DNA of 63,423 bases, counting the filler, from Sphacelaria rigidula (Eukaryota): assembly GCA_964200075.2 (NCBI GenBank). It is 11 parts of 11 records of this genome, joined end to end, with 100 filler letters (N's around TTAATTAATTAA, not from the genome) between each part and the next. Parts side by side here need not be neighbours in the genome. Positions count along the whole stretch, not along the records: positions 51,976 to 57,649 come from CAXNAA020025358.1; 10 more parts are not named here. The stretch is one strand, 5' to 3'. Below the pieces are notes generated by a model. That model searched no databases and was not told where the DNA came from. It saw only the letters and a list, made by a program, of their open reading frames with translations. Position 1 is the first letter of the stretch, and every line of letters starts with the position of its first letter. Made by a program: the position numbers and the translations under genes. Shown piece after piece: positions 1,847 to 57,649 of the stretch.

Positions 1847-1861
1847 TCACGCTGGGTTCAC

Positions 1862-2635
1862 CCCATCACCAGCAGTAGCCACGCGTGGGAGACATATACA
1901 CTCCACGTGCACAGCTCCCCCAGAGAGATACGCACAGCTATTTCTCCCAGAACCTCGCCGAGTAAGCGAGAATGGACCCATCGACGGGTAGTACGTACCA
2001 GCGCTGTCCAGCATAGTGGCCATTACTCGTAAGGTGCGTGGGTGTTGTCGCACGGTCGAAACGCGGACCGTCTATGACAAAGAGCAGCAGCAGCAGCTGC
2101 AGCATCGGTACCAGCTGATTCAAAAGCACCCCCAGCCGTACACATTCACTGGCAATAAAGATGCTGCTGCTGCTACTGCTGCTTCTTCTTCTCGTGCGGA
2201 AGGTCGTCCGCGTTTCGACGTGCGACAATACCCATCCACCTGGCGCGTTATTTTCTCCTCCCCACTTGAGATCGATTATGATATGTTTGCGTGTTGTTGC
2301 CCTCATGTTGTATCAGTATACTGTAGCATTTCGGTACAAGTACATTTCACTTGTTTTCCCCTGTATTGGACGCTGGGTATATTCTTTCAACGCCATCACC
2401 AGCAGTAGCCACGCGTGCGAGACACACCCGATGTGTACACCTCGCACAGAGAGACGTACACAGCTGAATCTTCTAGCACTTAGCCTGGTGAGGAAGCATT
2501 GACTTATCAGCGGGCAGTACGGATCAGCGCTTTCCGGCATGGTGGCCATCACGCGCAAGGTGCGTGGGCGTTGTAGCACGATTGAAACACGCACCGTTTC
2601 TCGGATGAGGAAAAATGGCAGCAGCAGCAGCAGTC

Positions 2636-2678
<43 letters not shown>

Positions 2679-3650
2679 TCGGCCTCGACTGACTCAGACC
2701 CACCCCTAGCCGTACACATTTACTGGCAATAAAGATGCTGCTGCTGCTGCTGCTGCTGCTTGTGCGGGAGGCGGTCCGCGTTTCGACGTGCGACAGTACC
2801 CATGACCTGACGCGTTATTGCCCCCCTCCTACGGTATCATTTCAAGTAGACTACGATCTGTTTGCGTGTTGTTACCCCCATACAGAGGTAGCAATTTCAG
2901 TACGAGTACATATCACTTGTTTTCCCCTGTATTGGACGCTGGCTTCATTCCCATCACCAGCAGCAGCCACGCGTGCCAGACACACCCGACGTGCACAGCT
3001 CGCACACAGAGATGCGCGCAGCTATATCTCCCAGCACTTAGCCTAGTGAGCAAGCATAGACCCATCGACGGGTAGTACGGACCAGCGCTTTCCAGCACGG
3101 TGGCTATCACGTGAAGGTGCGTGGGCGTTACAGTGATAGCACGATCGAAACGCGGACCGTTTCTCTCACGAGTAAGAACGGCAGCAACAGCAGCAGCAGC
3201 AACAGTAACGGCACCGGCTTATTCAGACTCACCCCCAGCCGCGTACATCTACTGGCAATGACGATGCTGCTGATATTGCTGCTGTTGCTTCTTTTTCTCG
3301 TGCGGAAGGCGGTCCGCGTTTCGACCTGCGACAGTACCCACACCCCCTTGCGTGTGATTGCCGCCCTCCTTGAAGTTGCTGGTCTGTTTGCGTGATGTTT
3401 TACCGTCTCTGTATCACTTGTTTCCCACCCTAGCATATTCGATTAGAAAGGTGTGTGATTTCTCGTGATGATGAAATGGTGAACCGTCACTTCACTATCA
3501 CCATCACGAAATGATTATCATGTTCCTTGTTTGGTTCAAACACGACCTTTGCCATGCTTGCTTCAATTCCATCACCAGCAGTGGCCACACGTCGGGGACA
3601 CACTCCACGTGCACACCGCAGAACGTCGCATCCTTAGTATATCTCTGTCC
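1862..3650. repeat. Tandem repeat of ~530-620-bp units (three full, one partial), each containing a CAG/CTG-armed foldback
   Basis: Unit start ccatcaccagcag(t/c)(a/g)gccac at ~1863, 2393, 2951 and 3569; internal inverted repeat tcgaaacgcggac...gtccgcgtttcga. Confidence 0.85.
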
Positions 3651-4979: not shown

Positions 4980-6542
4980 ATCCAGTTGGAGGTTGCTGGC
5001 GCGTGTCCGGCCAGTTCGCTGGCACGTCGTGAGGCTTACATCCTTGGTAAATGGCTTCGAAGACGCTCGCCGTGTCGCCTATTTGATCACCGCTTCCGGG
5101 TAAACCACCGTCTGACACGACGAAGTCGCGCGCTTCCGCCAGCTTCACCTGGTGAAGGTTAGTGGGCATTTGGGAGAGTTAGACGATACAAGAGAACTAC
5201 GTAGCCGAATCAGTCCCAGGGTGGTTGGATCCAGGAAGTGCGATTTAGTGCAAAATCTACCCTGCCAGTCAGAAACGAAGGGTTGCTCCGGTCGGTCAGA
5301 ATAGAACCGCAGAATTGCATAAGGCCATCTGCAGAAGGCCTTCGGTGCAACTTTCCTAGCTCTGCTGCCTCTTTCGGGCCAAGCACCTTCGATCCATCGA
5401 CTCTTTGGGGCTCTGAGGGCGTGTCTTCGCACGTTCGTTTTCGATTGAAAAATTGATCTCATGGGCCCACCGCATTCACGTTCCTTGAAGGCTTCAACTC
5501 AAAATTTTAAACTAACGGCGCGCGGAGAAGAATGGAACGACGTATAAAACAATCGTTTGAGATTGAAAACATGCGGTCGAAAGGCACGAAGCGGCACTTG
5601 ACTCCTATCCTACAAATAACAGCCGATTTTATATTTTGGGGTTCAAACAAAGTATGGGGCTGAAGTGGCATATCTNNNNNNNNNNNNNNNNNNNNNNNNN
5701 NNNNNNNNNNNNNNNNNNNTTAATTAATTAANNNNNNNNNNNNNNNNNNNNNNNNNNNNNNNNNNNNNNNNNNNNCAATGGTCAAACGGCTAAGGCAAGC
5801 AACACATGAGAACGCCCCTTCCCCTTCCGGGCACTTACCTGTTCGTGACGTGATAGTTTAATTCTCATGTGCACATTGAAGTAATGGAGTGGCCACCTCC
5901 AGGGGGGGGAGGGTCTGGTTCTGCTTAGAAGTTATTCCACATCAACCCCAAGCCAGTATGATCTGATATCATCGAGACTCCGAAGTTCTTGAAATCAGCG
6001 GGGCAAATCCCACTCAGCAATATTCTGTATGTTTCCTTTGTCCAGATGTTGCGAGTATCAAGTCAAAGCCGGAACCCTGACCCAGTACAAAACTCGGTAA
6101 TGAACAATGTTTTTTACATGAGTCAAACCGACGAATGAGGCAAACATGTTTGTGGTCATATAAGATTCTCACAATATATACTACGTGTAGCATCAGATAT
6201 CTGCCGAATCCGTCAGCGAGAGTTGACGTTTTGATGTTTACGTGCTTGTTAGCCACGTGGAGAAAGAGCCATTCGTGCAGCTGAATCGAACAGTGAGGCG
6301 GTACACACATAATACTTGCATACAGATTTATGATTCATTGATATCCGGCCGTGACACTGATGCACAGCGGTTCCCCTGCAATACTGCACGAGACAGGCTT
6401 CATCTACTCTTGCCGTACGTTTCATATACATTTATTGTATCAAATGTATGTATATGTATATATATATACCATGATCGCATACTCGTATTCTCTTCCCATA
6501 ATGTCTTCACGACTTGCTCGCCCATGTTCGCTCTCATTTTAG

Positions 6543-11380: not shown

Positions 11381-11450
11381 TGGGGAGGGGCGGGGGGTGT
11401 ACTCATGATCATGCTTGCCATAGTCATCAGACCATTGACCTCGCATCCCT
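11381..11450 (-). mobile_element. Poly(C)-tailed retroposon 3' end, family A (cut by contig end)
   Basis: G-run + TGTACTCATGATCATGCTTGCCATAGTCATCAGACCATTGACCTCGCATCCCT. Confidence 0.8.
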
Positions 11451-16063: not shown

Positions 16064-16120
16064 TTTTGACTATGGCATACATGATCATGAGTACACCCCC
16101 CCTCCCCCCCGCCCCCCCCG
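16064..16120 (+). mobile_element. Poly(C)-tailed retroposon, family A, extremely 5'-truncated
   Basis: ...GACTATGGCATACATGATCATGAGTACA-CCCCCCC; CCCCCCCGCCCC on both sides (possible TSD). Confidence 0.75.
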
Positions 16121-19372: not shown

Positions 19373-19420
19373 GGGGGGGGGGGTGTACTCATGATCATGC
19401 ATGCCGTAGTCATAAGACCA
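19373..19420 (-). mobile_element. Poly(C)-tailed retroposon, family A, 5'-truncated
   Basis: G11-TGTACTCATGATCATGCATGCCGTAGTCATAAGACCA flanked by CCGGGGGGGGG and CCGGGTGGGGG. Confidence 0.8.
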
Positions 19421-19974
19421 ACCGGGTGGGGGGCGGGAGGTGTCTGTCCACAGAGCAGCCGAAACGCTCACCAAGTCAACCATGTGTGTTTGGAAGATTC
19501 CCGCGGAGGATTCTAAACCAGGAATGAGGCCCGAGAGGCGCGGAATAACCGTTCTGAGCAATCACGGCCGTCAAAATGAGCACGTAGTTCCCCTACAGGT
19601 GGACTTCTTCGCTGTCTACTGGAATATCTCATCTTGGTCATCGCCGGTCAACCATAGATGTCATGGGTACAAATAACTTATTTGGTACTCTGCTCGAGGT
19701 CTGTGCCGCCTGTTTGACGCCTCCTGTGTTGCCAGCATAGCTTCACAGTCCTAAGTGTTGTTGTTGAACACTAAGCAGATGCATCAGCAGCATGCAGTGA
19801 ATTGTGTTCGGTGGAGAGCGATGGCGCACTGACTGTTTCTTGCCGTTGTATCCAGCGGAGACATACCGCACACATACTCTGTACGCTATTGACTACACGG
19901 TCAAAACCGGTCAGGGGTTCTCCGAAACTAATTTCTATACAGATGCCCAGGATCCACATGATGATGAAGAAACG

Positions 19975-21199: not shown

Positions 21200-22196
21200 A
21201 TTTGATTGTCTTTCCCCTGTTCAAAAAATAAAACCAACCATCCATCCTCAAACAATCTTCAATTAATTAATTAATTAGTTAATTATATATTAATATATAT
21301 ATTATTATATATGGTTCTATTTTCAATCATATAATTTTCTTCATTTTATAGTTGCGAAGTATATATCTACCAACCCTCCGCGCCCCCGTTTTGTTTTTGG
21401 TTATCAATATCCGCCCCAACATGCGCGCTCGTACGCACACTCTCACAGAGTTTATCGGGATCAACGACCATCACACGCGATGCTCCGGGAGATGTCAGGC
21501 TGAGTATCGACGGCAGTCAAGATGAGGGAAAGGGGGAGTCGGCTGCCGTTGCTCAGGCTAGAACGCTGTTTGCTCAAGGGTTGATTTCGGCCGAGGAATT
21601 GGAGGCGGTTGTTCAGAAGGATCAGGTGCACCTTTCCTTTCATTTTTTTTTTTTTCTGTTGTGTTATAAAGTGAGAATTTCACACTCTCCCTCAGCCGTG
21701 ACGAATCCGCATCTTCAAGGAATGAGTAAACTACCTTACTGTCAATTGTCCGAATTGAAGTCGTTTTTTTTTTTGCGTGTGGTTTCCCGCATGTCTTCAT
21801 TTACTCACGTCGGAGTGCAAGATAAAAGCATGTGAATGCGTTGTTCTTTTGAAAAATTCGTTCCCATTTGTCTTATTTGTTACCATGTCAAACTATTCAT
21901 CAATTTGTTGGTCGCTTCTTGTATACATTTTTTTTTTTTGTCATTTTGACTCGTTTTATTTTTCATACGCACGAATGCACAAGACGAGCAAAAAATTATC
22001 ACATCCAGGCTTCTTCAATCAAGTGGTACAGCAGCAGCACATGTGTTTCCGGCTGAGCAACTTCGTATAGTACGTCTATTTTTGTTTTTTGCGTTTTTTT
22101 GGGGGGCGAGGGCGGGGGAGGGGACACTTTCAAAACCTTCCCTTCCTTGGGACTAGTCCGTGGTCTGAACGGTCTCATCAATTCCTCCCCCCGGTG

Positions 22197-22961
22197 AGGA
22201 AATTACGAAAGGGCGGGCTGGAATAAGGTGGGATAGAGGAGTCGAGAAAGTATGGAAAGATATAAGAGGAAGCCAAGACGAAATACTGCCCTTAGATAAA
22301 GGCGGGGGGCACAAAACAAAAGTAAGAGTCATGACAAGAAATAAGGGAGAAAGAAGCGCTACGACGCGAAGTAGACGAGGAAGAACACTTGGAGATATGC
22401 GGAGGGTTCAGAGAGGGGATGAGGATGAAGACATATTTGCGTGGCCCAATCTACGTGGCGAAAAAAATGAAACCGCGATTTCGGGTGGGGAACCTGGACC
22501 TCCCGGAAAGAATAAAGAGATATACCAGGAGTCGTAAGGAGGAAAAAGTAGACGCACAGAACTGCCCCTGTGGCGAAGCACCAGAAAGCAGAAGTTATAT
22601 AGTTGCAGAATGTGAACAATACAAGGAGGAACGGGACGTGCTAAAAGGGAAAATGTGGGACGTGGACGAAGGTGGGATGAAAACGTTTGATGCATTAGTT
22701 AGTAGGGAGAAAACAATGGTTATACTTGAAGATAGATGGTGGTCACAGACGGCGAAGCAGGACGGGGATAAGATATGTAAAAAGGTTTTTGCGTAATGTA
22801 TGGAAGAAACATAATGAGCGCCGGAATGTTGAAGGTGTCTCTGTGAGAAGTAGGAACGATGCTCCGTCTGGAAAGGGATACGTGGTCAATGGTCGAACGA
22901 CGAGGGCAAGCAATGAATGAGTACGCCACCCCCCCACCCCCCACCCCCCCCCCCCCCCCCC
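22197..22961 (+). mobile_element. 3' end of a LINE-like non-LTR retrotransposon (frameshifted ORF C-terminus) ending in poly(C); family B
   Basis: KGRAGIRW..V motif, RFRVGN..L, degenerate zinc knuckle CPCG-x3-ES-x2-Y-x4-C-x2-Y-x3-R and FLRNVW, as in LINE RT C-termini. Stop at 22918-22920 followed by GTACG and a ~36-nt C-rich run. Confidence 0.8.
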
Positions 22962-26166: not shown

Positions 26167-28560
26167 CTACGGAAAGCATGACCTAAAACATCTAGAGCTG
26201 ACAAAAGACACACACGAAAACATAATATGTGCCTTCTCGCTGTCCTCAATGTTCATCAAGACACGGTGATGCCTTTTGAACAGCGTGATCGGGAGCGGCT
26301 TTGTAATAATATCAGCGTGTTGCCACTCTGGATCCACATGTACGATCCATACTGCTCCCGTCCTAACCAAGTCCCTAATAAAGTGCCATCTTACATCAAT
26401 ATGCTTGCTACGACCCGAGCTAAGTGGGTTGTCGGCGAGAGCCTTAGCCCCCTCGTTGTCCTCATGAAGAACAATATCGTACTCCATTTGTCGTCCCAAC
26501 ACAACCCTTGGTCGTAGGAAAGAGAGTATCGACCTGACAAGCATACACTCCTTCGCCCCTTCGGCCATAGCTACATGCTCGGCCTCGGTGGTTGGTAGGG
26601 TGACGCAGTGTTTCGTTCGACTAGTACTCAATACTGCTATCCCTCCGCACATCACCGCTACCCCGAAAAATGATCGCCTGTTTGTCTCTTTCTTGGCTTA
26701 GTCAGCATCACAGAAGACTGAGAGCACACTTTCCCCTGAACTGAAAGTCAGACCGTAGTTTCTAGTCGTGTTCAGGTATACCAAGACTTTCAAACCCCTT
26801 GCCAGTGTCTTTCGCATGAGTCATGTGATTGACGGGCCAGGTCCCGGGCTGCATTTGCTATGTCAGGCCTGGTTACCCCAGCCAACCACATCAACCTCCC
26901 TACGGGACTTCGGTATGGTCTATTTATGACCTTGTCTCCTTGCTTCACCTGCCCTAGGTCTGCTGATACTGAGGGAGGAATATCAGAAAACCCATGGCTT
27001 CAAAACGCTTGAGCATGGTGTCGATAATATCGTCTGGTTTACATACATGGTACCTCTTCCCCAGTCCCTCTCTCTGGCACACCCCATGTACCACTGGACT
27101 TCACCTCGATTGTTCGTCGGAAATTTTGTTTTGAGGATGTCGCAGACTTTCTCTACTCTTTTTGCTTCACCCCCAATCAGGATATCGTCTACATGCACAA
27201 CTAGTATGACACATACACACCCCATTTCCTCCTCCTCGTATACACACAGGTCAGCTTCACTTTGTGACATTCGTGCATCGTCCATCAATATTTTGTTCAG
27301 GAGGAGGGACCATTGTCTCCCTGTTTGCTTGATGCCGTAAATGGATCTCTCAAGTCAAACTGTACTACCCGTCAAGGGGCCACACCCGTCTGGGAGCTTC
27401 ATGCAATCATACGTGTCCATTTTTCCTCATACAAAGGCCTGGGTAACGTCGAAACGATACAGTGGTAATCCTCTCCGCACTGCCACGACCATGACCAATT
27501 GTTCTGATGTCATGGTTGGGGTAGCTGCAAACTTCTCGAAATAGCCAAGAGCGACTATCTGGCCAAATCCAGTCTACCCTTCGTTTGGTGATTTCACCGT
27601 TTGCATCGGTTTTCCAACTGAACACCCATCTTGCCGTAATGATATTTACTCCTTTTTCGGGATTTCTTCTCTTGTGGATATACCTGCGGTTTCATGCCCA
27701 TTCAGTTCTGCACGCATGACACTCAGCCATATTTCCTTATATTCCGATTGTTCAATGTATCTTACTGTTACAGGGGTGGGGGGTTGGTATCTCTCACGTC
27801 GAGACCGACGGGGGAACGCGAACAAAAGCTGGGCTCTTCCTCTGTTCCGTTTTCGACCGAAAAACAAAATACTCCTACCACACAAAAGTCTCCTGGATCA
27901 GCAGGGCCGCCCTGCCTCCCACCTCTGGTCCGGCTTCTGCAGTGATCAGGTCCATCATCCCGCACCTATCCTCCGCTATTCCATAGAGTGCAGTTTCCGA
28001 TTGAGCCCTGGCTTGAGCCCTCGACAATCACGCGGGAAAACTATTCTTCTCTTTCCCACGCCCGTATTTCCTCCAGCTCCTCTACCGCCGATGCTAGCTG
28101 CCGCTCTTGTCGCACTGCGCGTGCGGCCGGCCATTCGCGAATGCAGAGACAACTCGTCGTCGAGTGCAAGACGGCGTAGCTCCGTCCTTGGGAGTTCGAG
28201 AGCTCCACTGCCCCCCCCATCGTTGCGCTCGGGGGTGGCGACGGTTGTCGGCGACGATGTTGGCTGAGTAGTTGTTAGTGATACCGCAGGTGAATGCGGT
28301 ACCGGCAATGCGGGTGGCTGTTCTGGTGTTCTTGCCGGCGGTGTCGGCGGTGTCGGCGGTGTCGGCGGCGATGTCGGCGCTGCGGCTGTCAGCGTTATCG
28401 GCGCCGTTGTCGGCGCCACGGCTGTCGGCGTCATGAGGGGTGTTGTCGGCGCCGAGCCCGGGTTATCGATGAGATGCTGAACTGGGCTTCGTAAGCCCCC
28501 CCCCCCTCCCGCCTCTACTGCCCACTCACCTCTAGACTCTTGGGTTGGCGTCGAGTGGCA
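26167..28560 (-). mobile_element. Decayed Ty1/copia LTR retrotransposon pol (RT + RNase H), with stops and frameshifts
   Basis: RNase H motifs TTEAEH, EDNEGA, RSKHIDVRWHFIRD, QHADIITKPL; RT motifs WVFSWKTD, ADLCVY, VHVDDILIG; Pro/Thr-rich linker upstream. Confidence 0.95.
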
Positions 28561-28925: not shown

Positions 28926-31900
28926 ATGCAATTCTCGCCTGCCACCCAGGGTGACAACAAATCCCAACCTCGACTTCCTCAACAAGCCAGCTCTTCTTCC
29001 CCTTCCCCATCCGCATGCGTCATTTCTGCCGGCCGCAAGAAACACGACAGGTAGTATCCTACCTAGGATGACGACCATCCGCAAATTCGACTGACCCATC
29101 AGCCAGCCCTCTCCCTTTCCCACCTACCCGCTCATGCCTACACTACCCATGGCAACATCAAATCTCAACTTCCTCACTACTGCCCCTTTCTGAGTGAACT
29201 CCGCCTGTCAAGGGGTATACCACACGTGATACACAGAGTATCCCACGGAGGTCAAAGCAAATCCAAAGTTTGACTACCGCTACAAGCACACTGTCCTATT
29301 TCTCCGCCCTCCCTCACATGCGTATGCCAACCACGCCACGACAAACATCAACGTCGACTCCCTATTCACGATCAAGTCCCCTCCCTTCCCCGAGCGCGTC
29401 TTTATTCCTACGCGTACACCACGGAGGCGACGAGAAATCTCGCGCGTGACTTCCTCAACACGCAAGGCCTTCCTCCCCCTTCCCCATCTGCATTCGTCAT
29501 TTCCGCCTGCTTCGAGACATGCGATAGTATTCACATCGAGGGCGACGACCATCCGCAACTTCTACATAACCATCAATCAGCCCTGTCCCTCCCCCACCTG
29601 CCCTCTCATGCCTACACTACCCAGGGCGACAACAAATCTCAACTCCCTCACTGCCCCTTTCTGAGCGAACTCCGCCTGTCGAAGGGTATACCATACGTGA
29701 TACACGGAGTATCCTACGCAGGCCAAAAGTAAATCCGAAGCTTGACGTTCGCTACAAGCAAGCCCTCCACCCCTTCCGCCCCCCCTCACATGCGTATACC
29801 AACCACGTCACGACAAACTTCGCGACCAGAGATCTCGAGCTTGACTTCCTCAACTGGCGAACCCTTTCCCCCACCTGCACGGACACCAACGACCAGCCCT
29901 CCCACCCCGCGACCTCTTGCTTCCCTCTGATGCAAATCTCGCCTGCCACCACGCATACAACATCTGACACATGGAGTCTACCACCCAGGGCGACAACAAA
30001 TCCCAAACTCTACTTACCCAACACGCAAAAGCTCTTCTTTCCCTTTCCCAGCCTCATACGCCAATTCTGCCGGCCGTAAGACATACGACAGGTAGTATCC
30101 CATCGAGGGAGACGACCATCCGCAACTTCGACATCTCCATCATCCAGCCCTCTCCCTTTCCCAGCTTCCCTCTCATGCCTACGCTACACAGGGCGACAAC
30201 AAATCTCAAATCCTTCACTGCCCCTTTTTAGGCGAACTCTGCTTGTCAAGGAGCAAGCCATATGTGATACATGGAGTATCCCTCGCAAGTCAAAAGCAAA
30301 TCCGAAGCTTGACTTCCGCTACAAGCACACTCTCCCGTCTCTCCGCTCTCCCTAACATGCGTATGCCAACCACGCCACGACAAACTTAAACGACAACTTC
30401 CTATTCACAATCAAGTCCTCTCCCTTTCCCACCCCTGTCTCCACTTCCGCGCGTACACCACCGAGGCGACGAGAAATCCCAACTTCGACTTCCTCAACAC
30501 GCAAGCCCTTCCTTCCCCTTTCCCATCCGCATAGTCATTTCCACCTGCCGCAAGACATGCGACAGGTAGTATCCCATCGAGGGCGACGACCATCCTCAAT
30601 TTCCACTTCTCCATCAGCCAGCTCTCCCCCTTTCCCACCTGCCCTCGCATACGTACGATACACAGGGCGACAACAAATCTCCCTTGCAACCCCTCCCGAT
30701 GCGAATCGTGCCTGCCACGAGGCAAACAATACCTGGTATACCAAGTATACCATCCGGGGCGACAACAACTTCCAAGCTCGACTTTTTCAACAAGCAAGCC
30801 CTCCACCCTTTCCGCCCACACTGCCACGTGTCTATCACTTGTGGCGACAACAACTACCGAGCTCGAATCCTCCACAAGCTAACCTCTTCCTTCCCGCCCC
30901 CCTGTCCATAAAGAATACCACAGGTGATACACGAAGTGTCCGGCGAAGGTCCACAGCAAACCTCAAACACGACTGACTCCCTGCGCGGGAAAGCTCTCCT
31001 ACTGCCCCGCGTCCACTTCCAGACGAATGCTACCCAGGTCGGCGAAAGATATCAAGCTTGTTCTTCTCCACAAGCAAGCCTTTTCTCCGCTGCCTACATT
31101 CTCACGCGTACGCCACGAGGGCCACATCAAACCCCCAGTTTGTCTTCCTCAACGAGTCACCTCCTCCCTCGGGCCATTCGACCTCCATTTTACGCATTTT
31201 CTGCCTGCCACGCGGCACACAATAGGGTCAAGATTTGCAGGCACACAGTGCAAATGTACACCCAGAGCTTAAACCTCTCCCGAGCGCGGCTTTTTCACCA
31301 AGCAAGCTCTCGTTCTCGTGCTCTGCCCGCATCCACATGGCACTTCTGCATGCCATACGGTTCACCATAGATGGGATGTGTTGCACACCACGGGGGGCGA
31401 AACGAATTTCCTACCTCGACCCCGTCGTCACAAGCAGATCCCCACCCTTGCCCGCTCCCCTCCCCTGCTCCTATGCAAATTCCGCCCCACGCGGGACTTA
31501 CCACACATGACCGATGTACTGTAGTATTCCACCCAAGGCGAAAATATTTGGCGAGCTCAACTTCCACAGACAAGCCCTCATCCTACAGCTCCCCGCACCT
31601 ACATGTCGATTCCCCCCGCCACGAGGCGTACCCAAGATAATATACGCCGTGTACCACACACGACAAAACAAATTCCCTACCTCGACCTCCTCTTCACGAG
31701 CAAACGCTTCCAACCTGTCCCCTCTCCCCCACCACGCGAATTCCGCCTTATACACGGCATACCATAGATGATTGATGTAGTTCATCACCCAGGGCAAAAA
31801 CATTCCCCGAGCTCGACTCCCTCCGCAAGAATATCACTGTCCCCCGCTCTTCTCCCCCACCCGCTAGTTCCGCCTGCCACGAGGCGTACCATGAGTGGTA

Positions 31901-34350: not shown

Positions 34351-34550
34351 GGGGGTGTACTCATTATCATGCATGCCATAGTCATCAGACCATCGACCTC
34401 GCATCCCTACACAGCCGGGACGGAGCACCCCGGGTTTTCGCCTCACCAGGCTTTCACTCAAACCACCAAGCGAGCAGCGCCGTGGTGTGTTCGGCGAGTC
34501 GCATAAAGGGTGAGCTGCATCCTACTAAGACTGTTCGACCCGAAGCTTAC
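34351..34550 (-). mobile_element. Longest family-A poly(C)-tailed retroposon copy (200 bp, cut by contig end)
   Basis: Shared 3' end plus an upstream body unrelated to the LINE ORF; a degenerate + strand copy lies at ~35316-35468. Confidence 0.8.
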
Positions 34551-34716: not shown

Positions 34717-36095
34717 CTCGAAAAAAAAAAACAGTTAATCGATCGGGCACGAACTATTCGAAGAAAACAAAAGACGGTTCATCACTACCAAACAGTCATC
34801 AGTCGTAGCTAGCCTGTGACCACGGAAGGCGTCCGCATCGGATGCCCAGTACGAATGTACCGCGCAGATATCGGAACGGTTTTTAATGTGCAAGACAACA
34901 ACAACAAATAAACGGTGAGAGAAAAATAGATAGACCTCAAGTCCGGTCAAACGGTCGAGGCGCGGATGAGAAAGAGAGAGAAATATGGAGAGAGCGACGT
35001 CTACACCATGAAGAATACCGCAGGTGATACCCTGATTATAGGACCCTTAGCAAGGCGATGAGAAATCCGAATTCGATTATTCCTCGTCAACTGCGGCAGC
35101 CACGCCACCGACAGATTCGTCTCTGCCGCAATGTCTCTTGGAAACCGTTCGGGAAAACTTTGTCTTGTAGCAATGCAAGTACGGCCTTGCGCATGGAGGA
35201 AATCGGGGTTGGGTTCCTTGCCACCCCACCAAACGAACTCGATCATCTCAAGGTACAGCATCCCTCCCCCCCCCTCCCCCGAGGCTGTCATCTATATGCA
35301 AGATAACTACAGTAGCAAGCTTCGGGCCGAACACACCACGGCGCTTCGCGCTCGGTGATTGACTGCGATACTGGTCCGGGAAAACCCGGCGTGCTCCGTG
35401 TCGGCTTCGTAGATATGCGACGTCAACAGTCTTACGACTACGACATGGAATGACAAGTAAACCGCACCACTTCATCATTCCTCCATCACACCGATTTCGT
35501 CTTGCCTCAACCGAAATGACTCCACAACGTGTGAAAAAGGTGATAGATCCTATACAGACACTCGTGGTACATTGCATACCAGTTGTGATGTACAGGGTAG
35601 TGCCTGCCATCGGTCGAAAAGCTGCTTGACCCTCGCACGGTGACGGCAGCCCACTTGAGTTCACATACGCCGATGCGGCGCTACTTCGTGTATGACATTA
35701 CGCGAAGGACTAGTCCTGGAGTAGTAAAGATTCCAAAGTTCTTCGCGGTCAAAGGCTTGACCGCTGGAGCGCTAGGAATCGTTTTGGGAACAACATCGCT
35801 GGGGGAGTCTCAATAACGGTCAACAAGTCCCACGCCATGGTGACGGAATAAATTCTTGGAACAAGAAAAAAGCGCCTTGTGCAAATGTTTCCAATTGGAA
35901 GGAAGGGAAAACAAAAATATAACTCCGTGATCTTTGTCCAATGTTTTGTCTTTGCGCTGAACCATTTCATGCGTGGGGGAAAAAAAGTAATTTCGTTCGG
36001 GCTCGAGAACAACAAAAAAAGACATCACTGGTGAGAGAAATCGAAGTGCAGATTTTGAGCTACACACAAAAGCTGTGCCCGGTCTGCAGCGCTGC

Positions 36096-36170
36096 GGGGG
36101 GGGGGCGTACTCATTTGTTGCTCGCCTTAGTCGTGTGACCATTGATCACGCATCCCTTTCGAGACGGAGC
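36096..36170 (-). mobile_element. Family-B poly(C)-tailed insertion with TSD
   Basis: AGCGCTGCGGGGGGG at 36088-36102 and 36168-36182. Confidence 0.85.
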
Positions 36171-38431
36171 GCTGCGGGGGGGATGAGTTGGGAACAGAGC
36201 GCGATAATTCGTGTGCACATCTTATCATAGGTTTTGCACGTGCGTTGGGCCACGATTCCACAGCAGAGGTTACGCTTTTATATATGTATATATAGACACA
36301 CACATGATACAGGGAAATTGAACGGTGACCACGCAAAACGAACAAATCGTTTTCTCTGGCTTCGCACAACGTGTGGACCAACCGACCAAGTACACATCTG
36401 CAGGAAAAGCGAAGTAGTAATCGCAAACTTCTTGCCGTTGTCGTTTTCGTCTGCTGTTTCTTCGGTAATGTCGAGAAAATAGAGGGGAAAAAAAACACAT
36501 TTATAATTGTTCCGAGATAGAATTAGTTTAACGTATTTCGGTGACCTTACACTTCTATTCACTACTGATTTTTTATCGTGATATTGATAGTCTAGGATAC
36601 GAATAAGAGTGAGAAGCGGCAAATTAGTGCATAAAATGGTGTCAGTTCCGAAATGCCCCTCCGGGCCTTGTACGAGGCCCGGCATGCTTCTGTGGTAGGT
36701 TGCTGCTGAAGCGGTTAAATCCCTGAGTAGGACATTAACGTGTAGCTATAAGCACAGAACGGCGTCACGGGCAAAGAAAAGTCCGGGACTATTTTCTATT
36801 CTCCACATAGATGCCAAACATCCACATTTTCACGAAAAAGGCGTTTTGTGTAGCGAGAAATGAGCTGTCCTGGAACCCGAATGTGGGATAGTCCATCTCA
36901 GTCCATCTGCGGGGGGGTCGCTAAGGGTCAACCGATCCGCGAACACAATAACTCGCTGGCCGCTGTGCCTTGAAGTGACCAAAACGACAAGATACATCTT
37001 TTCCCAGGCTACTATAGTGCCCTTGGCGATGTATGTATTGCACACCTTGCACAATATATGGTCAGCAGATGCGATAGACAAGAATTGTACTGGATCAAGT
37101 ATAGCCCTATTGCACCTATTCACACGTCGGATAGCTCATGAGCTACTTGAATCAACTATTCGAAGAAGACTCTGAGATCCCTTGTTCAATAACACAAAGT
37201 ACGTGACAGCAGGGTGCGAGGAGCCAAAGCGCCACCTTTGCACTTCGCCGCGAGCTCAGTGTCCAGTGCTTCAGGGAGAACTTTTGGAAAAAGAAAAAGA
37301 GCCTAGAGGAGCTATTACTGTAATAGCTCATGATCCGGATCAGCACACAAATAAGAAGTAATTTCAGGTAGCTCATGAGCTGTCCGACGTGTGCAAATAT
37401 TGACGCGCCGTCGTTAGTTGCAATAGGCCTATACTTTATCCAGTACACTTCTTGTCTACTGCATCTATTGACCATATATTTGTTGTCCAGGGTGTACAAT
37501 AGTAGTTGCACTAGGTCAATACTTCACACGGTACATTTTTTCAATTGCAACCCATTGTCCACATGTTGTCCAGGATGTGATGTGTTGCCATCTTACTCAT
37601 ACTACACTGACGGTACTTCACCTGCGCCCAATCTACGAACAAGCTCCAAAGTATCGCGTTTATGACCGTGCCCGACAAAAAAGCCTGAAAACTGAAAACT
37701 TGCAAGGTTTTGGAGGGGTGAACGGCATCCAACTGTACTGTTGTCCCTGTAGCAGTGTAGGGAGTGCCGTAACGCCACTCCCATTTCGGGACGAAAGCGT
37801 GGGTTTGACAGTTAGAGCCCTGAGTACCTTTGCTACATTTTCAAAGGTTCCGTTAAGCTGGCACCTGGAATATATCTGCAAACCTTCAGCTGCAGTACCG
37901 ACGAACTTACAACAAGTGCATAGGTGTGAATTGTGGATTTACACGCAGTCTGCCAAGAGCTTCGAGGACCGCACGAGGTACGTTATTTAAATGGGAGAAG
38001 GTATAGATACACGTGGGAGTCATCCCGTCAAGGATTTTGCTCTTTGATGGGTTGGACACCTACGGCACCCATAGCCAGAGTCCAAAATTAGGGCCAGCTA
38101 TTCACGACCTTCATTGCAATGAAGGCATGTTCGAATGCAGGCGACAAGGTCATCGCCGTTTTCATGGTCACGCACAGCCATTCAGCTACGTACGTCTGCA
38201 TTCTCAGGCACGTATGAACGGCAGACTACACGTGTTTTCCCATGACCACGGTGTGTTCAAATCCTGCGTTGGGAGCATACTGTATGATCAACACATACAT
38301 CATGTTTGTGAAGCTCTCTTGGCGAAGTCGAACCAACATAACAACAGAAAAAGCAGCGACCACAACAGCAACATCTATTATTGGAAGTTGGAAATTGATC
38401 CGTAATGATAAAAACAAAAACGAGGGCATAC

Positions 38432-40425: not shown

Positions 40426-40481
40426 AATGGTCTTATGACTATGGCATGCATGATCATGAGTACACCCCTCCCCCCCCTCCC
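40426..40481 (+). mobile_element. Family-A poly(C)-tailed 3' end at contig start
   Basis: AATGGTCTTATGACTATGGCATGCATGATCATGAGTACA-CCCCTCCCCCCCCTCCC. Confidence 0.85.
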
Positions 40482-46019: not shown

Positions 46020-46100
46020 GGGGGGGGGGGGGGGTACTCATGATCCTGCATGCCATAGTCATAAGACCATTGACCCCGCATCCCTATATAGCCGGGGCGG
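46020..46100 (-). mobile_element. Family-A poly(C)-tailed 3' end at contig end
   Basis: G15-TACTCATGATCCTGCATGCCATAGTCATAAGACCATTGACCCCGCATCCCTATATAGCCGGGGCGG. Confidence 0.85.
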
Positions 46101-48719: not shown

Positions 48720-50431
48720 TAGTTCGTCGAAATGTACCTCCACCGCGGCTTGTCAGGAGAAGGAGAGTGTTCAGACCAGAAAGGTAGTTAATCATGTTTT
48801 TCGCCTGCAACCGGTACTACTACTTCGCACCAGATGTACAGGATTGGATCAACTTGCTATAAACACCGTTTTCAATTGGAATTCTTCAGAGACGTCAACT
48901 GGGGATATGTGCCGCGCCCGTTCATTTGAAAAAGGAAAAGAAAAACTCGCCTTGTACGACGCACGCGCAAAACGGACCTTTTCGTCAAAATCCAACCTGT
49001 ACCCTCGCTAGACGGAAATTTCTGAGGTAATGCCGAATTTGGTGGGCTTTTTTTTTTTAATACCTTTTCGACATGGCCCTTCCGACCTTTTCTAGCCGAG
49101 TTGCCCGAGGATCTATCGGTCATCTCATGCAGTTGGCCCGCCTCCCCTAACCCAACCACCAGCAACAGCAACCATGACACCCGAAGGATCGATATTTTCG
49201 TCAGTTGATTTGCCGCTCACCAAACCAGAACGACCAAACCCCGGTGTGTTCTTTGATTGATTAATTTGATTTTTTTTTATTGTCGCACTTTAACCGACCC
49301 CCCAGGGGTCCAGCCGTGGTCTCATAAAAACCGAACGAACCCAAAAAAAACGAAACTGAAACACGCTCTCAGAAGAAAAAAAAAAAGGAACAGAAAAAAA
49401 AAACTTTGAGAAAATAAAATCAGAGGCTCTGCCCACAAACTACTCTCCTAACCCAGGCACTCCGACGGCGGTTTTGCCGCACACCGAAACACCCCGAACG
49501 AAAATTTCTCGCACACCGGAATCCGAGCGTAAGTCCCGACTATGGACACACAAGTTGTCCTCGTTTCTGGTAGAAACAACATGTTTTAATATTAATGCCG
49601 CTTCATTGGCCTGTTCGTCATCTCGCGAGAACCGTCCCACCAGCACGCCACACATGATATGTGGTCATGATGTGTGATCACCCACTCTCTGCGCACCAAG
49701 GCCCTCTCTAGAGAGAGACACGGAGAGCATACGTAGTATCTTCTTTCCATCAGGGTACATTTCGCGGTGTAACCACTTCGTTGAGGTCATGCATTATCGC
49801 AATCGGTACGCGCTCTCTGCTTATGCTTCCGTAGTGTTGACAGTTCTCGTGGCAGTGCTGTCATACCTCGAGCATGTTTTTCATCTTGCAACGCGGACTG
49901 ATGTCTGTGCTACTATAACATCCTGCCCGGGTTGCTCTCCTGTTCTGGCAAGCCTGGTACTGGTGTAGTTTCAAATGGTGACTGGGCTTTCTATATCTCA
50001 CAATAAACTCCATCGTTGCTGCGGGGACTCCATCATCTTGTAGTGTTGTAACGTTCGGTTTACTGTACCGTCTGTACTACGGCAGTTGTACCTGTACTTC
50101 ACGCTGTGGTGAATTGCTGGAAGACACGGTTCCCGCCAGACGACGAACAGGTCAATGAACCCAGAAACGAACCCAGACACATACAATAGTATCCGTCTGG
50201 AGCGCGGATAATTGGTATGTCTATATTCGGAACCGCCGCTCGGATTCTGGTGTGAGGGAAATCTTCGTTGGGGGGTGTTTGGTGTGCGGCAGAACCGCCG
50301 TCGGAGTGCTTGAGTGCGGAAAGTGAACACGTCGGGTTTACTCATTTCGATGGGATAAACGGCAAATCAACTGATGGAAAATCGACTCTTCGGGTGCCGT
50401 GGTTGCTGTTGCTGGCTGTTTGGCTAGAGGG

Positions 50432-50508
50432 AGGGGGGGGCGTACTCATTTGTTGCTTGCCTTTGTCGTTTGACCATTGACCACGCATCCCTTTCGATAC
50501 GGAGCACC
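50432..50508 (-). mobile_element. Family-B poly(C)-tailed insertion with a perfect 17-bp TSD
   Basis: GCTGTTTGGCTAGAGGG at 50415-50431 and 50509-50525. Confidence 0.9.
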
Positions 50509-51660
50509 GCTGTTTGGCTAGAGGGGGCACCGACTGCATGAGGTACATAAGGTCCTCGGGTAGTCCATGCCCGGCTACAAAATATCGAGAGGACCATCTA
50601 GAAAAGGCAACAACGCCTGTCCTTTCGAAGTGCTTCCACGCCCTGACTGCCGATACCTCCGTGTCACCCATATAACATTGTGCTATATACCACGACTTGA
50701 AGTTGTTGCCTACAGAGTACCGGAGAGAGGTGGGTTAATTCCTTGAGACCACGGGTTCATCTCAAGGAAGAGGAGGGGTTTAAAATGTGATAAATGAAAA
50801 GAAAAAGAGTCGTGTGGGAGATGTTGTTAGCGGCAAGGGCGATCGATGATAGTAACAAAAACATGCTACAGACATTGCACGGCTACGATCTGTAGTGGCA
50901 ATTTTATGTTTCTCTGCTGTAGTAATGCGTGGTTGGTCTATGACGACAGAGGGAAAAGGGGTGCGGCAGACCTCCCCGGAGGAAAAAAAGAAAAATAATC
51001 TTGTCGCCTTTATGAAACTTGAGCAATTTCCCCCCTCGTATTCTGTCAATGCATCCGCCCTGCACCGTACATGAGGCCTCCACTGACCCGCGTCACTCAG
51101 GAACGGTCGACATGCCACCCACTGCACACCCTATTTTGCCCGCTATCCTCATCACTCTCAGTAGCCCATGCCCCAGAGTGACTTAAGGCGATCCCCGATA
51201 CTATACAGCAGATCCGTAGACAGCAACGGCTGTGGAATTGCTGGAGAGTGAGCTGCCGCGAAAACGAAACATGTGTAAAGTATTGCGCTGCACCATACTG
51301 TAAACAGGTGGGCAGCCAAGAGTAGACAATACGCCCCATGTCCCCAGTTTGCTTTCGTCACTCTCATTAGCTCAGCACCTGCAGAAGCCAGAGCAGCATT
51401 CGTACTACGCAACACTGCTGGCTGCCGCATCATATGCGAAGTTGGAAGCTGTCAATACCACTTGCTTCAGTTCTTGTCGTTGAGAATTAGATCCACCTGG
51501 CTGACTTCCAAAGAAAGATCCGCCTCTAACTTCAAACAAATTCACATTTCAGGTCCAGACTTACAAATCTCGAGGGAAGAATCCGTCGCCGGAGTACATT
51601 CCAGAGAGCTTGGCAACCCTATTAAAGGTTACAGGGATTTCTCCGCAATGGACCACACCT

Positions 51661-51764
51661 GGTCTCTAGTGGAGTAGTAACGGTGCTCCGTCTCGAAAGG
51701 GGTGCGTGGTCAATGGTCAAACGACCAAGGCAAGCAACAAATGATTACGCCCACCCCGCCCCCC
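51661..51764 (+). mobile_element. Family-B poly(C)-tailed 3' fragment
   Basis: Aligns with 22835-22940 of the LINE fragment and ends ATGATTACG-CCCACCCCGCCCCCC. Confidence 0.8.
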
Positions 51765-53719: not shown

Positions 53720-53896
53720 ACGGGCGTCAATTTCACTCGAAAAAAGTGTGTGATCCAGATGGACTACCCGCATCGCGGTGTAAGGATTAGCCCTTTGACC
53801 TCGAAGGTAGGTCACCTGCTGAATCGGCATCAATTTCACTTGAAAACAGTGTGCGTGATCCAGATGGACTACCCGCATCGCGGTCTCAGGGTTAAT
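53720..53896. mobile_element. Tandem pair (one partial) of the piggyBac-like MITE
   Basis: Junction ggattag-ccctttgacc; ends cgcggtctcaggg-TTAA. Confidence 0.8.
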
Positions 53897-53912
53897 TACA
53901 TACACTGACACT

Positions 53913-54268
53913 ACCGGTCGCCCCGGTGGCTCAGTTGGTAACCTCGAAACCCTCTGACGGTCGGGTCGTGGGTTCGAATCTTCGAGCGACCTGGGATTTT
54001 TCTCACACAATGTCCAACGGTGGAGAGCAACTATGTCATGGGTACCCAAAAGCGACTGGATGGTCGACGACGGAAAGGGACTGCTGAACCCCTCTCACGA
54101 TAAAAAATAAAGGGAAGCACCGCAGTAGGAAGGTGGAGAATGAAAAACAAACCAAAAAGAAAAAAAACTCCTGTGTTGACCTCCCTCCTATGTGACCCCG
54201 GTTGGTGCGCCCACATATACCGGAAGGTGCAGACTGGCGTCCAGAAGAAATGGGACAACACACACACT
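53913..54268 (+). mobile_element. Full-length tRNA-derived SINE
   Basis: A-box GTGGCTCAGTTGG, B-box GGTTCGAATC, (AC)n tail. Confidence 0.88.
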
Positions 54269-54655
54269 GACTAGACAAACTACACAGGCCGTCAATCCAG
54301 CTCGTGGTGATTCGTCTCTGCGTGGTTGCTCTCACCGTACTGCTTCGCTCTATACTCCCTCGCAACACGCTCCCGGACGACGCAATTTTCTATTCGGCAT
54401 GGATGATGTTGGCCAAACACCAATGTTCGATTTTGATTTGATTGGCCATTTCTTTCTGTGCTTTGCTTGTGTTGAATTATTGTTACTTCTTTTTGTCACG
54501 ACTTAGTCTGCTATGTCGTTCTGTCCGACCCCTCTTTCTTTTCTTTTCTTTCTGTTCCTACTTTTTTCTGTTCCTACTTTTTTCTGTGCCTTCTTTTTTC
54601 TTCCTTCTTTTTCTTAGAGCGTGTTCGAATTTCGTTTTTCTCAGGTGCGCCTGTC

Positions 54656-54718
54656 ATGAGACCACGGCTGGACCCCTGGGGGGTCAGTTAAAATGCGACA
54701 ATCAATCAATCAATCAAT
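54656..54718 (+). repeat. Retroposon-like 3' end with a (CAAT)n tail; inverted copy at ~49253-49326
   Basis: atgagaccacggctggacccctggggggtc.gttaaa.tgcgacaat followed by (caat)n in both copies. Confidence 0.6.
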
Positions 54719-54892
54719 ACGTATACTTTCATGCGTTGTGTCAGGTTAGCCACAGGCAATCGTCGCTTCCCGAGTAACATATTCCATGCCGGCTCTGCTG
54801 TCCGTGGGTGGATTCAAAATGTAGTTCGTTGGACGAGCGAGTCTTTGCGCCAGTGTCGTGTGAAAATGGTTCTACTCTGACAGTAGGTCCTA

Positions 54893-55743
54893 TTAACCCT
54901 TGGACCGCGGTGCGGGTAGTCCAGCTGGATCACGCATACGCTTTTCAAGTGAAAATCGATGCCGATTCAGTAGATGACCTACCCTCCTCGCGGTCCAAGG
55001 ATTAACCCTAGAACCTTAGACGACGAGAGTAGGTCATCTGTTGAATCGGCATCCATTTCACTCGAAAAACGTAAGCGTGATCGAGATGGACTAGCCTCGC
55101 GGTACAAGGGTTCAACCGCGATGCTGGTGGTCCATCTGGATCACGCATACTTTTTCAAGTGAAAATGTATGCCGATTCAGCAGGTGACCTACCCTCGCGG
55201 TCAAAGGGTCAACTCTTGGACCGCGATGCGGGTAGTCAATCTGAATCACATATACGTCGTTCATGTGAAATTAATTCCGATTCAGCAAGTGGCCGACCCT
55301 CATCGCGGTCAAATGGTTAGCCCTTAGGTCGCGATGCGGGTAGTCCATCTGGATCACGCATACGCTTTTCAAGTGAATATCGATGCCGTTTCAGCGGGTG
55401 ACCTACCTCCTCGCGGTCCAAGAGTTAACCCTTAGACCGCGATGCTGGTGGTCCATCTGAATCACCCATACTTTTGCCAAGTGAATATCGATGCCGATTC
55501 AGCAGGTGACCTACCTTCGCGGTTAAAGGGTTGACCGTTAGACCGCGATGCTGGCGTCCCATCTGGATCACGGATATTTTTTTTATGTGACTACTGATGC
55601 CAATTCAGCAGGTGATATACACTCGCGGTCAAGATGTCAACCCTCTCACCGCAAGGGTAGGTCACCAGTGGGATCGTCATCAATTTCACTTGAAAAAGGT
55701 ATGCATGATCCAGATGGACTACCCGCATCACGGTCTAATGGTT
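54893..55743. mobile_element. Array of eight ~105-bp piggyBac-like MITE units in mixed orientation
   Basis: Units bounded by CCCTT(A/G)GACCGCG...CGCGGTC(A/C)AAGGG and joined through TTAA-like tetramers; orientation + - + + + + + -. Confidence 0.85.
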
Positions 55744-55759
55744 TTTCATGGGTACAGCC

Positions 55760-55885
55760 TCGCCCCGGTGGCTCAGTCGGTAACGTCGAAATCCTCTCAC
55801 GGTTGGGGTCGTGGGTTCGAATCTTGGAGCGGTCTGGGATTTTTCTCACACAATGCCTGACAGTGGAGAGCGAATATGTCGTGGG
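55760..55885 (+). mobile_element. 5' third of the tRNA-derived SINE
   Basis: TCGCCCCGGTGGCTCAGTCGGTAAC...GGTTCGAATC...GGAGAGCGAATATGTCG. Confidence 0.8.
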
Positions 55886-56717
55886 GGGTAGAACCGGTTG
55901 TTTCTCCACCTTGACTTCTCAAGCGAGGGAGAACACTCCGATGCGGAAGTGACGGTGGCGGGTGCAGCACTTACAGCACCGGTGACCGCGCCACTCATGG
56001 TGTAGAGTTGCGCGTAACCCTAAGCGTACTGCTTTACTGCTGTGCTGTGCGGCGTGCGGTCTGTTGTGTGTTGCTACTGCCATGTGTGGACAATGCTGTG
56101 TGTATCTGCTTTAGTCGTGTATCGTCGACTTGAGTAGGTCCACTTTTTGCTCCTGTACGCCACAGGCAAAAAGATGGCATTACACAACGAAAGCGCCTCA
56201 ATTATCTTCATAAACACAACATATCAACCCTTCCGTGATGGTGCGCAACCCTAATCTGGACAAAAAGGCTTCTCTATCAGACTGAATACTGGTCGTTGTT
56301 GGAGCAATCATTTACAAAAGTGATTTTTATCCATCATCGGTGTGTTGTAGCAAACGTGCGGAGCAGGAAAGATCCAATGCCGTTGATACCTGCAGCACTG
56401 CTGCCACGCGCGTCAGCCGTGGCTTATCACTAGTTGTTATTATTGTTATTATAATCGTTATCGTTATCATTATCATTATTTATTGATTATTTCGTTGAGA
56501 CTGAACGCATCACATGGGCAAGTCGCTCATCGACCGACGTAGAACGGCCAAAAAGCAGCGTGTATGGATGAGCTCTTGAGAGAGGAAAAGCGTCGACCCA
56601 CGTGATGCGTATTGATAGTCGAGTAAAACTACGGCAGGTGTGGCACATTTGGCCTTGAACCTTCCTCAATCAGGGGCTCTCCTGACACTTATTACGATAG
56701 CCCCCCCCAAAACCAGC

Positions 56718-56802
56718 TGCTCCGTCTCGAAAGGGATGCGTGGTCAATGGTCAAACGACTAAGGCAAGCAACAAATGAGTACGCCCCCCCCCCTCCCCCC
56801 CC
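56718..56802 (+). mobile_element. Family-B poly(C)-tailed insertion with TSD
   Basis: C8-A4-CCAGC at 56701-56717 and C8-A6-CCAGC at 56795-56813. Confidence 0.88.
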
Positions 56803-57476
56803 AAAAAACCAGCCCAAAAGTGTCACGAAAAATATGGACATACAGTGCCTGAGGTTGGGTTCAGGCTGCATGAAGCGCCTCATATGGGCGACATCGGCGA
56901 GAACGAGCCTAAGCTTGGGAATTCCCGCATGATCGTTGTACTCGGCCTTTTGCATCTCGAATTACGTCAAGATTTTGCCTTCCCAAACCAGGCTTTTTTT
57001 TAGGGGGAGGCTGTCGTAGAAAGTGTCTCCTAAATGTACAAGCTAGATAAGAACATGGGTCAAGACATTCCCGTTTTGAATGTCAATGGGGACATCCCGA
57101 GCCCATCTAGAACGCTAATCGTGGCGTGCTGCCACATACTTCAGAAGTCATGTTTAGATGAGATGGACGGCTATCAACAATTTGAACCTCAGAAAATAGT
57201 TGTGCTGTAGTTCCCTGAAGAGTGCCTTCACGCTGTATTTCGGCCAACGCGAAATGTTTCCGACTTTTTTTTTATCTTACTTTCATCTCCTCCCCCTCTT
57301 TGGGACGAGCCCTTAATGCCAAAGGATCGACCCGCCTCTCCAAGTACACGACTTATATTTCAAGCATCGCGGATTGCATCAACACTTCCGCACTGCGTCC
57401 ACCCACGTCAATATTTATTGTGTTGTACAGTACGCATACCCTCATGTTTGCATCTACGAAAATTGGATAACACTCG

Positions 57477-57580: not shown

Positions 57581-57649
57581 GGGGGGGGCGCACTCATGAT
57601 CCTCCATGCCGTAGTCATGTGACCATTGACCTCGCATCCCTACAAAGCC
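57581..57649 (-). mobile_element. Family-A poly(C)-tailed 3' end at contig end
   Basis: G8-CGCACTCATGATCCTCCATGCCGTAGTCATGTGACCATTGACCTCGCATCCCTACAAAGCC. Confidence 0.8.

Follow-up and report, generated by a model that had tools for sequence, protein, structure and literature searches.

Recognition tails shared by LINEs and SINEs are well known as a kind. In mammalian L1 and Alu elements, a homopolymer tail anneals to the nicked target and new copies often land in older tails; recognition by L1 is relaxed and uses the poly(A) added by the cell. The HDV-like ribozymes of R2 and other LINEs are structured RNAs of ~70 nt that cut at their own 5' edge and set the 5' end of the RNA. The stringent type of recognition has been shown experimentally for UnaL2 and ZfL2 (PMC1636434, PMC4176376, PMC3747384), as far as the available portions of these reports go. 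According to the same portions, a tail of ~60 nt together with the terminal repeat is the sole cis requirement of UnaL2, with slippage occurring at the repeat (PMC1636434), and the stem-loop is bound by the region of ORF2 between EN and RT (PMC4176376). In ZfL2 the loops carry the specificity, and the model proposed combines general recognition of the stem with specific recognition of the loop (PMC4176376).

Here we describe a module of ~68 nt that precedes a run of C residues in DNA of Sphacelaria rigidula and is carried by two otherwise dissimilar families of elements. The window, i.e. the whole stretch of DNA analysed (63,423 nt in total), consists of 11 pieces of 5,675 nt (5,674 nt for the last two) that are joined by linkers of the form N44-TTAATTAATTAA-N44. 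Residues in the module are numbered 1-68, where GGTGCTC marks the start and GAGTACG the end.

Module copies and the elements that carry them

Using BLAST together with a covariance model, 14 copies of the module and its C run were located in 8 of the 11 pieces (Table 1). The covariance model alone returned 12 matches at E<=1, in which full copies scored E-values of 1e-16 to 6e-23, and a 13-base seed matched the window nine times as compared to 2.5 matches expected, a count exceeded in none of 100 shuffles. Six copies belong to family B (at 56716, 50508, 36173, 51682, 22858 and 5776, the last cut by a piece end) and seven to family A (34429, 46100, 11450, 57649, 40426, 19421 and 16066), and one diverged A-like copy is present at 35390. 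Five copies end exactly at piece ends, which are possibly contig ends. The sequence at 56718-56783(+) is as the preliminary description gave it, and its consensuses for the two families were reproduced by computed ones. The tails are C runs of variable length (5 to about 36 bases), some of them interrupted. Large internal tandem or dispersed repeats of 71-85% identity, unrelated to the module, also occur in the window (1849-3399, 28939-30817 and 53723-55885).

Table 1. Module copies, tails and target site duplications (TSDs) in the window.
Feature	Position	Strand	Remarks
Family-B module, tail-only 'mini' copy (positions 3-68)	56718..56783	+	82.1 bits, E 1.9e-21
C tail of 56718 copy	56784..56794	+	10 C + T
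Left TSD of 56718 copy, CCCCCCCCAAAACCAGC	56701..56717	+	starts with 8 C, ends CCAGC
Right TSD of 56718 copy, CCCCCCCCAAAAAACCAGC	56795..56813	+	17/19-nt duplication
Family-B mini copy (positions 1-68)	50441..50508	-	BLAST, covariance model; tail 50432-50440
TSD of 50441-50508 mini copy, CCCTCTAGCCAAACAGC	50509-50525 and 50415-50431
Family-B mini copy, start at position 4-7	36106..36170	-	GCT microhomology at start; tail 36096-36105
TSD of 36106-36170 mini copy, (C run +) GCAGCGCT	36168-36182 and 36088-36095
Family-B copy, start ~21-24 nt upstream of module	51660..51764	+	module 51682-51749, tail 51750-51764
LINE-B fragment, 5'-truncated, frameshifted, C-terminal part of ORF	22191..22961	+	module 22858-22925, C-rich tail 22926-22961; flanked on either side by CCCCCCGG
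Family-B module, 3' part only	5776..5813	+	cut by piece start
Family-A copy	34351..34550	-	body 34430-34550 non-coding (cut by piece end), module 34356-34429, 87.2 bits
5-C tail of 34351-34550 copy	34351-34355	-
Family-A module	46033..46100	-	cut by piece end, C run after
Family-A module	11398-11450	-	cut by piece end, C run after
Family-A module	57589-57649	-	cut by piece end, C run after
Family-A module	40426-40462	+	cut by piece end, C run after
Family-A copy truncated within module, start near position 28-33	19385..19421	-
Family-A copy truncated within module, same start as 19385-19421 copy	16066-16094	+
Old diverged A-like copy	35281..35461	+	begins directly behind C run; 66 bits; 3' end decayed, without C tail

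Family B corresponds to the 3' terminus of a LINE of the APE+RT type. At a locus outside the window (L100, on a contig of 5,259 nt from a MAG with a bacterial label), a single open frame of 1382 aa contains the Pfam domains Exo_endo_phos (8e-11) and RVT_1 (7e-32), and its RT resembles the solved L1 ORF2p and R2 structures (~1e-21). The module lies directly before the terminal repeat (L100:108-175(-), then 13 C); the frame ends ...NGAPSRKGCVVNGQMTKASNK, with the TGA stop at module positions 61-63 followed by ACG and the 13 C. Two other intact outside copies, L013 and L021, likewise stay open into the module as far as a TGA at positions 61-63, and three protein clusters end ...ASNK in the same manner. 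Since the stop lies inside the module in all three loci, there is essentially no 3' UTR and the earlier claim that the ORF overlaps the structure is right, although it is the outside copies that establish it and the window does not present a clean case: its sole ORF-bearing B copy (22191-22925) is frameshifted, as is the outside copy L059. Among named organisms, Ectocarpus sp. CCAP 1310/34 has the proteins closest to that of the LINE (58-71% identity); together with the label of one public run that contains the element (algae metagenome), this makes a brown alga or a close relative the probable host.

Several further features of these loci were recorded. In L100, about 120 N-terminal residues that have no Pfam match precede the endonuclease (L100:3900-4261(-)) and by eye resemble a small RNA-binding-type domain; a separate ORF1 of at least 120 aa was not found on the element's strand of this contig. 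Comparison of 117 window ORFs of at least 110 aa with Pfam detected no LINE RT, the only match above cut-off being a Copia-type RT fragment (26986-27354(-), RVT_2, E 1.9e-11). The ORF at 51279-51674 that adjoins the 51682 copy was considered as a LINE ORF and rejected, as it is flank. P0002, the ORF that precedes the 22858 copy, encodes a C-terminal Cys knuckle and has 69% identity to a 340-aa ENA protein; neither it nor P0003 matches a Pfam family. Brown-alga-like eukaryotic retrotransposon contigs (G001:C43, G002:C325 and other small G002 contigs) occur in two MAGs that are filed as bacterial, one of them under the label Sulfitobacter sp., and these bins are therefore contaminated.

Pattern scans yielded five outside copies, three from 85 metagenome loci (L013, L021 and L059) and two from 11 genome-contig loci (L092 and L093), and gave no match in viral contigs. 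The other 82 metagenome loci were rejected as chance matches to bacterial ispG codons for MGCVVNGPGE. The 20-base core GGGATGCGTGGTCAATGGTC (module positions 18-37) is the usual spelling of this ispG peptide and contaminates word-based searches for the module.

SINE-like and non-autonomous, family A lacks coding capacity and measures at least ~290 nt. Its head is unclassified, and among the window copies its similarity to family B is confined to the module. A dozen older A-type copies are present in the eukaryote-like contigs of G002; those examined have a non-coding body of 120-220 nt in common, a few reach ~400 nt, and none has an RT upstream. No consistent reading frame runs through the A copies, and stops occur upstream in two of the three frames. 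When seven family-A loci were compared with Rfam, the only match was an unrelated hairpin in L132, and the head matched no family; a tRNA-like end or tRNA-derived SINE was likewise not found, as ARAGORN reported 0 genes in the window and the A copies gave no Rfam match of this kind. An extra hairpin is predicted directly 5' of the A module (GTCGG-TGAAAAC-CCGAC, in L116, L101 and others of G002), with a counterpart in the window that is shifted in register (CCGGG-AAAA-CCCGG, 35371-35389). Family A probably uses the enzyme of LINE family B. However, loop 1 contains 9 nt in family A as compared to 4 nt in family B, and because the loops differ, the enzyme of family B may not be the partner of family A.

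Nucleotide conservation and predicted fold of the module

Differences between the families are distributed unevenly over the module. In the lineage consensuses B, A1 (window) and A2 (G002), 1 of 40 paired columns differs as compared to 24 of 36 unpaired columns (p=6e-10), with helices taken from the MFE fold of a single B sequence; the sole differing paired column is a change from U-G to C-G that keeps the pair. For the consensuses, the observation that stems are kept while most differences fall in loops thus holds. This contrast is partly circular, and the conserved blocks can equally well be protein-contact sequence. Among B lineages, the module contains 2-4 times fewer differences than the 383 nt upstream (e.g. 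3/68 vs 57/381, p=0.0096, and 2/68 vs 44/383, p=0.018). We also analysed contigs from four public runs (three samples from two studies, with one run labelled algae metagenome). In the 36,736-94,804 contigs per run, variants that reach 5% are confined, within the module, to five positions: 38, 39 and 41, all in loop 2, and 45 and 46, where the change keeps the pair (G-U to G-C and U-A to U-G, respectively). Common variants in the contigs affect 5 of 68 places in the module and 8 of 61 places just upstream, i.e. they are not significantly rarer in the module. We conclude that the nucleotide sequence of the module is genuinely conserved.

The MFE fold of one isolated B module is a three-way junction with conserved joining bases. 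It is predicted to contain helix P1 (residues 2-7 paired with 62-67), helix P2 (8/9-13 with 18-22/23) that is closed by a GAAA loop, and a bipartite helix P3 (28-30 with 48-50, and 33-37 with 42-46). In almost every context tried, P2 and P3 pair with probabilities of 0.55-1.0. The probability of P1 in the isolated module is 0.99 for B, 0.94 for A1 and 0.04 for A2, and it falls to 0.00-0.01 when 100 nt of upstream sequence are included; RNAalifold keeps P2 and P3 and does not predict P1. Fold stability is weak by z-score (-2.06 for the B module by itself, -0.32 for B with its tail and -0.58 for A). In A2, the outer part of P3 has one extra G on the 5' strand and one extra C on the 3' strand, which would add a G-C pair, and in the old copy at 35281-35461 the P2 hairpin is kept despite changes at two pairs. 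In the long joining strand, 7 of 12 columns differ among lineages. Hairpins P2 and P3 are probably real, and closing stem P1 is doubtful outside a tail-only RNA. Of the stems in the preliminary description, P2 and P3 are predicted from single sequences and by RNAalifold, whereas the closing stem is the weakest and is lost from the prediction with upstream sequence; the GAAA tetraloop is present in B and is specific to it. Near-copies of both P1 strands (GGTGTCTC .. GGAGTAG) are located within the 24 nt upstream of the B module (L100:176-200(-)) and are an alternative partner for residues 2-7 in a 141-nt fold. The window copy at 51660 (51660-51681) starts at such a P1-like word.

Alignments of the module gave no covariation above shuffles, a check that had been proposed for the stems. 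For 13 sequences the covariation score was 0.122 vs 0.113 in shuffles (128/500), with pairing in 90.3% of cells vs 90.1% (234/500), and for 25 sequences fitted to the model the score was 0.113 vs 0.111 (186/500). Most copies were dead on arrival and their changes are neutral decay, so they cannot show covariation and inform little either way; the informative material here amounts to a handful of source lineages.

Copy 5' ends, target sites and alternative readings

The 5' ends of seven B copies could be dated by comparison with L100. Three of these start at positions 1, 3 and 4-7, respectively, and all three are flanked by TSDs, which agrees with the earlier observation that three such copies begin at the edge of the stem. 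One other copy is full length, and the remaining three start ~660-690 nt, 270 nt and 21 nt upstream. Under a uniform model over ~5.1 kb, the chance that two more of six starts fall in the same 7-nt window is ~3e-5, a value that overstates the case because real truncation is 3'-biased. In each of the four public runs, 250-291 contigs lose the match at place 173 (module position 3), beyond which they read T and a run of C, and this is the best-supported upstream loose end among those listed; it is a mode and not a distribution, as a further 1,750 loose ends and 322 joints lie beyond those listed. The loose end that follows it, at place 206, reflects a difference between subfamilies. In both data sets, the 5' ends cluster at the module edge. 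In addition, up to 38 contigs per run, among the joints listed, lead from places 169-176 back to places 95-101 ('goes back 73-81'), and these joints indicate head-to-tail units of module plus tail. Contig depth bins for X1 reach ~10 million in the module, with 4.9, 1.8 and 0.29 million in the bins that follow, figures that are no measure of copy number. Truncated A copies begin elsewhere, two of them at positions 28-33 and others near -10 and -37.

The TSDs of the three mini copies are 15-19 nt in length and begin with a C run, as does the TSD of the 22191 copy, and both the old copy at 35281 and one G002 copy start directly behind C runs. Moreover, 5'-truncated LINE fragments lie directly behind the C tails of A copies in L127 (762-1190(+)) and L132 (1189-1460(-)). 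Both fragments are from the endonuclease region (aa ~303-458 of the L100 ORF) and are expected if C tails serve as targets. The data fit priming by a bottom-strand G run that anneals to the C tail, with older tails among the targets. The TSDs at 56701-56717, 50509-50525 and 36168-36182 end in CAGC (CAGCGCT in one case), which may reflect a preference in top-strand cleavage or chance.

Taken as a whole, the sequences argue that the module is probably the cis-acting 3' recognition tail of a stringent-type LINE, followed by a (C)n tail to which the primer anneals. It is located at the extreme 3' end of an EN+RT LINE, an otherwise unrelated non-autonomous element carries it as well, copies are truncated and flanked by TSDs, and the terminal repeat varies. 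A position at the 3' end of a LINE, a non-coding partner, divergence that spares the helices and clustering of 5' ends constitute the signature of a stringent-type LINE/SINE tail. The conservation could instead result from selection on the C-terminal peptide of the LINE (..GAPSRKGCVVNG..), with RNA folds that are incidental. LINE proteins that are ~40% identical to the B ORF (P0009, P0010, P0012, P0019, P0020 and others) end in ..SAH..GCVVNG..AMAAx, the only conserved island in their long, otherwise variable C-terminal tails; this motif is thus old, and the lack of covariation above shuffles is compatible with a peptide origin. However, family A retains the same nucleotide blocks without an ORF and, as its loop 1 is longer by 5 nt, in another frame, tail-only copies that lack the ORF were inserted, and the changes within the module among B lineages are mostly non-synonymous (in loop 2, Q to L, M to T and T to A). 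The constraint therefore acts at least partly on the nucleic acid, and selection on the peptide with incidental folds appears quite improbable. Another account of the short copies is satellite-like tandem amplification of the module plus tail unit at the DNA level, with later scattering. The head-to-tail joints with a period of 73-81 nt in all four runs would be its product, but the three mini copies in the window are solitary, sit in unrelated flanks and each have their own TSD, and other joints connect tails to places 412 and 574, a pattern that insertion into C tails would produce. We regard tandem amplification as highly improbable.

The narrow placement of the 5' ends raises the question of cleavage. 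It is rather unlikely that site-specific cleavage produces a defined RNA end at the module's 5' edge and that the freed RNA of ~70 nt, consisting of module and C tail, is itself a retroposon; the cutter could then be a ribozyme of an undescribed class, or a nuclease that acts on a 3' end loaded with protein or ribosomes. The starts of the three mini copies at positions 1-7, the loose end at place 173 in every run, the narrow band of joint starts (places 169-176) and the three-way junction predicted for the isolated module all speak for such a site. They are offset by 5' ends that are scattered over ~8 nt, by truncated A copies that lack this start, by the variable columns of the long joining strand, and by the nature of contigs, which cannot show RNA ends. 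Ribozyme families of Rfam gave no match at gathering score in the window and none at E<=10 around B, A and L100, where the three stretches returned only chance lncRNA, miRNA and sRNA rows; the comparison with Rfam that had been suggested earlier thus assigns the module to no known family. When the module was threaded by eye onto an HDV-like double pseudoknot, the attempt appeared to fail because nothing precedes position 1 that could form the P1 of that fold. Threading onto a hammerhead was rejected, as CUGAUGA is found in one A copy but neither in B nor in the A consensus. A specific cleavage site at this edge therefore seems unlikely, whether the cut were made by a self-cleaving ribozyme of a new type or by a nuclease (host or ribosome-linked), with subsequent reverse transcription of the freed RNA. 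Nothing in the sequence appears to point to the catalytic activity that the preliminary description had considered possible. Were cleavage to occur, the module would be the shortest known retroposon, multiplying via C runs that include older tails, and its signal would lie in the last codons of the LINE ORF and be kept across a whole stramenopile LINE clade.

Proposed mechanism and comparison with known systems

If the module is a recognition tail, the protein from the single ORF would finish its translation on the module and bind P2 (8-23), bipartite P3 (28-50) and the conserved words GTGCTC and GAGTAC. The endonuclease would nick beside a bottom-strand G run, which would anneal to the C tail of the RNA and prime reverse transcription, with slippage altering the length of the tail. 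A tail of C cannot come from polyadenylation and must be templated. Family A would be mobilised in trans via the common tail. In cis, the module and tail may suffice, in which case an RNA or cDNA terminating at the module's 5' edge would give a tail-only copy of ~75-80 nt; such copies would also insert into older C tails and yield head-to-tail pairs. The preliminary description had proposed a module for RT recognition or 3' processing, and the signature of a recognition tail supports this reading in part; covariation, fold z-scores and the closing stem do not add to it.

Four features appear to be new here: a homopolymer C tail with C-run targets, a signal embedded in the last 21 codons, an apparent conservation across a LINE clade of stramenopile type, and many tail-only copies of ~75 nt. 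A search of the openly accessible journal literature, RepBase excluded, found no C-tailed LINE or SINE. The module would add a stramenopile (brown-alga-type) case to the rule that LINEs and SINEs share their tails, and annealing of the C tail to G runs at the nick would offer a simple, testable account of target choice. Because the signal extends over the final 21 codons as well as the stop, the end of translation and the recognition of the tail would take place on the same ~70 nt, which would be a natural system for studies of cis preference. With their fixed 5' limit, tail-only copies may reveal directly from genomic data the smallest unit that can be mobilised. In annotation, the ~75-nt C-tailed units and family A break assemblies and are best masked as retroposon tails and not as RNA genes.

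The HDV-like ribozymes of LINEs are situated at the 5' end of the element, whereas the module is at the 3' end and has no match in Rfam. L1 and Alu have in common with the elements described here a homopolymer tail that is complementary to a base run at the nick. Eel UnaL2 and its partners UnaSINE1 and UnaSINE2 (L2 clade) are similar in that, in the available accounts, the LINE and its non-autonomous partners share only the 3' tail, and that a structured part is followed by a terminal repeat. However, the UnaL2 repeat is (UGUAA)n and its structured part is one stem-loop in the 3' UTR, whereas here the repeat is a homopolymer (C)n and the structured part comprises two predicted hairpins, perhaps a three-way junction, within the last 21 codons of the ORF. 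The hosts also differ, as the element described here probably belongs to a brown alga. The zebrafish elements ZfL2-1 and ZfL2-2, as described in the same accounts, combine a conserved stem with a lineage-specific loop, as do families A and B with their differing loops 1 and 2; the ZfL2 ORF2 has a tail-binding region, and the likeness here is confined to the pattern of stem and loop. In Chlamydomonas, SINEX-3_CR and L1-1_CR are an algal SINE/LINE pair with ~80 nt of common 3' end, reported along with the stringent 3' ends of plant L1 elements in the accessible part of the source (PMC3747384). That pair has a poly(A) end and resides in a green alga, whereas the elements described here have a C tail and are found in a stramenopile (PMC3747384 for the former).
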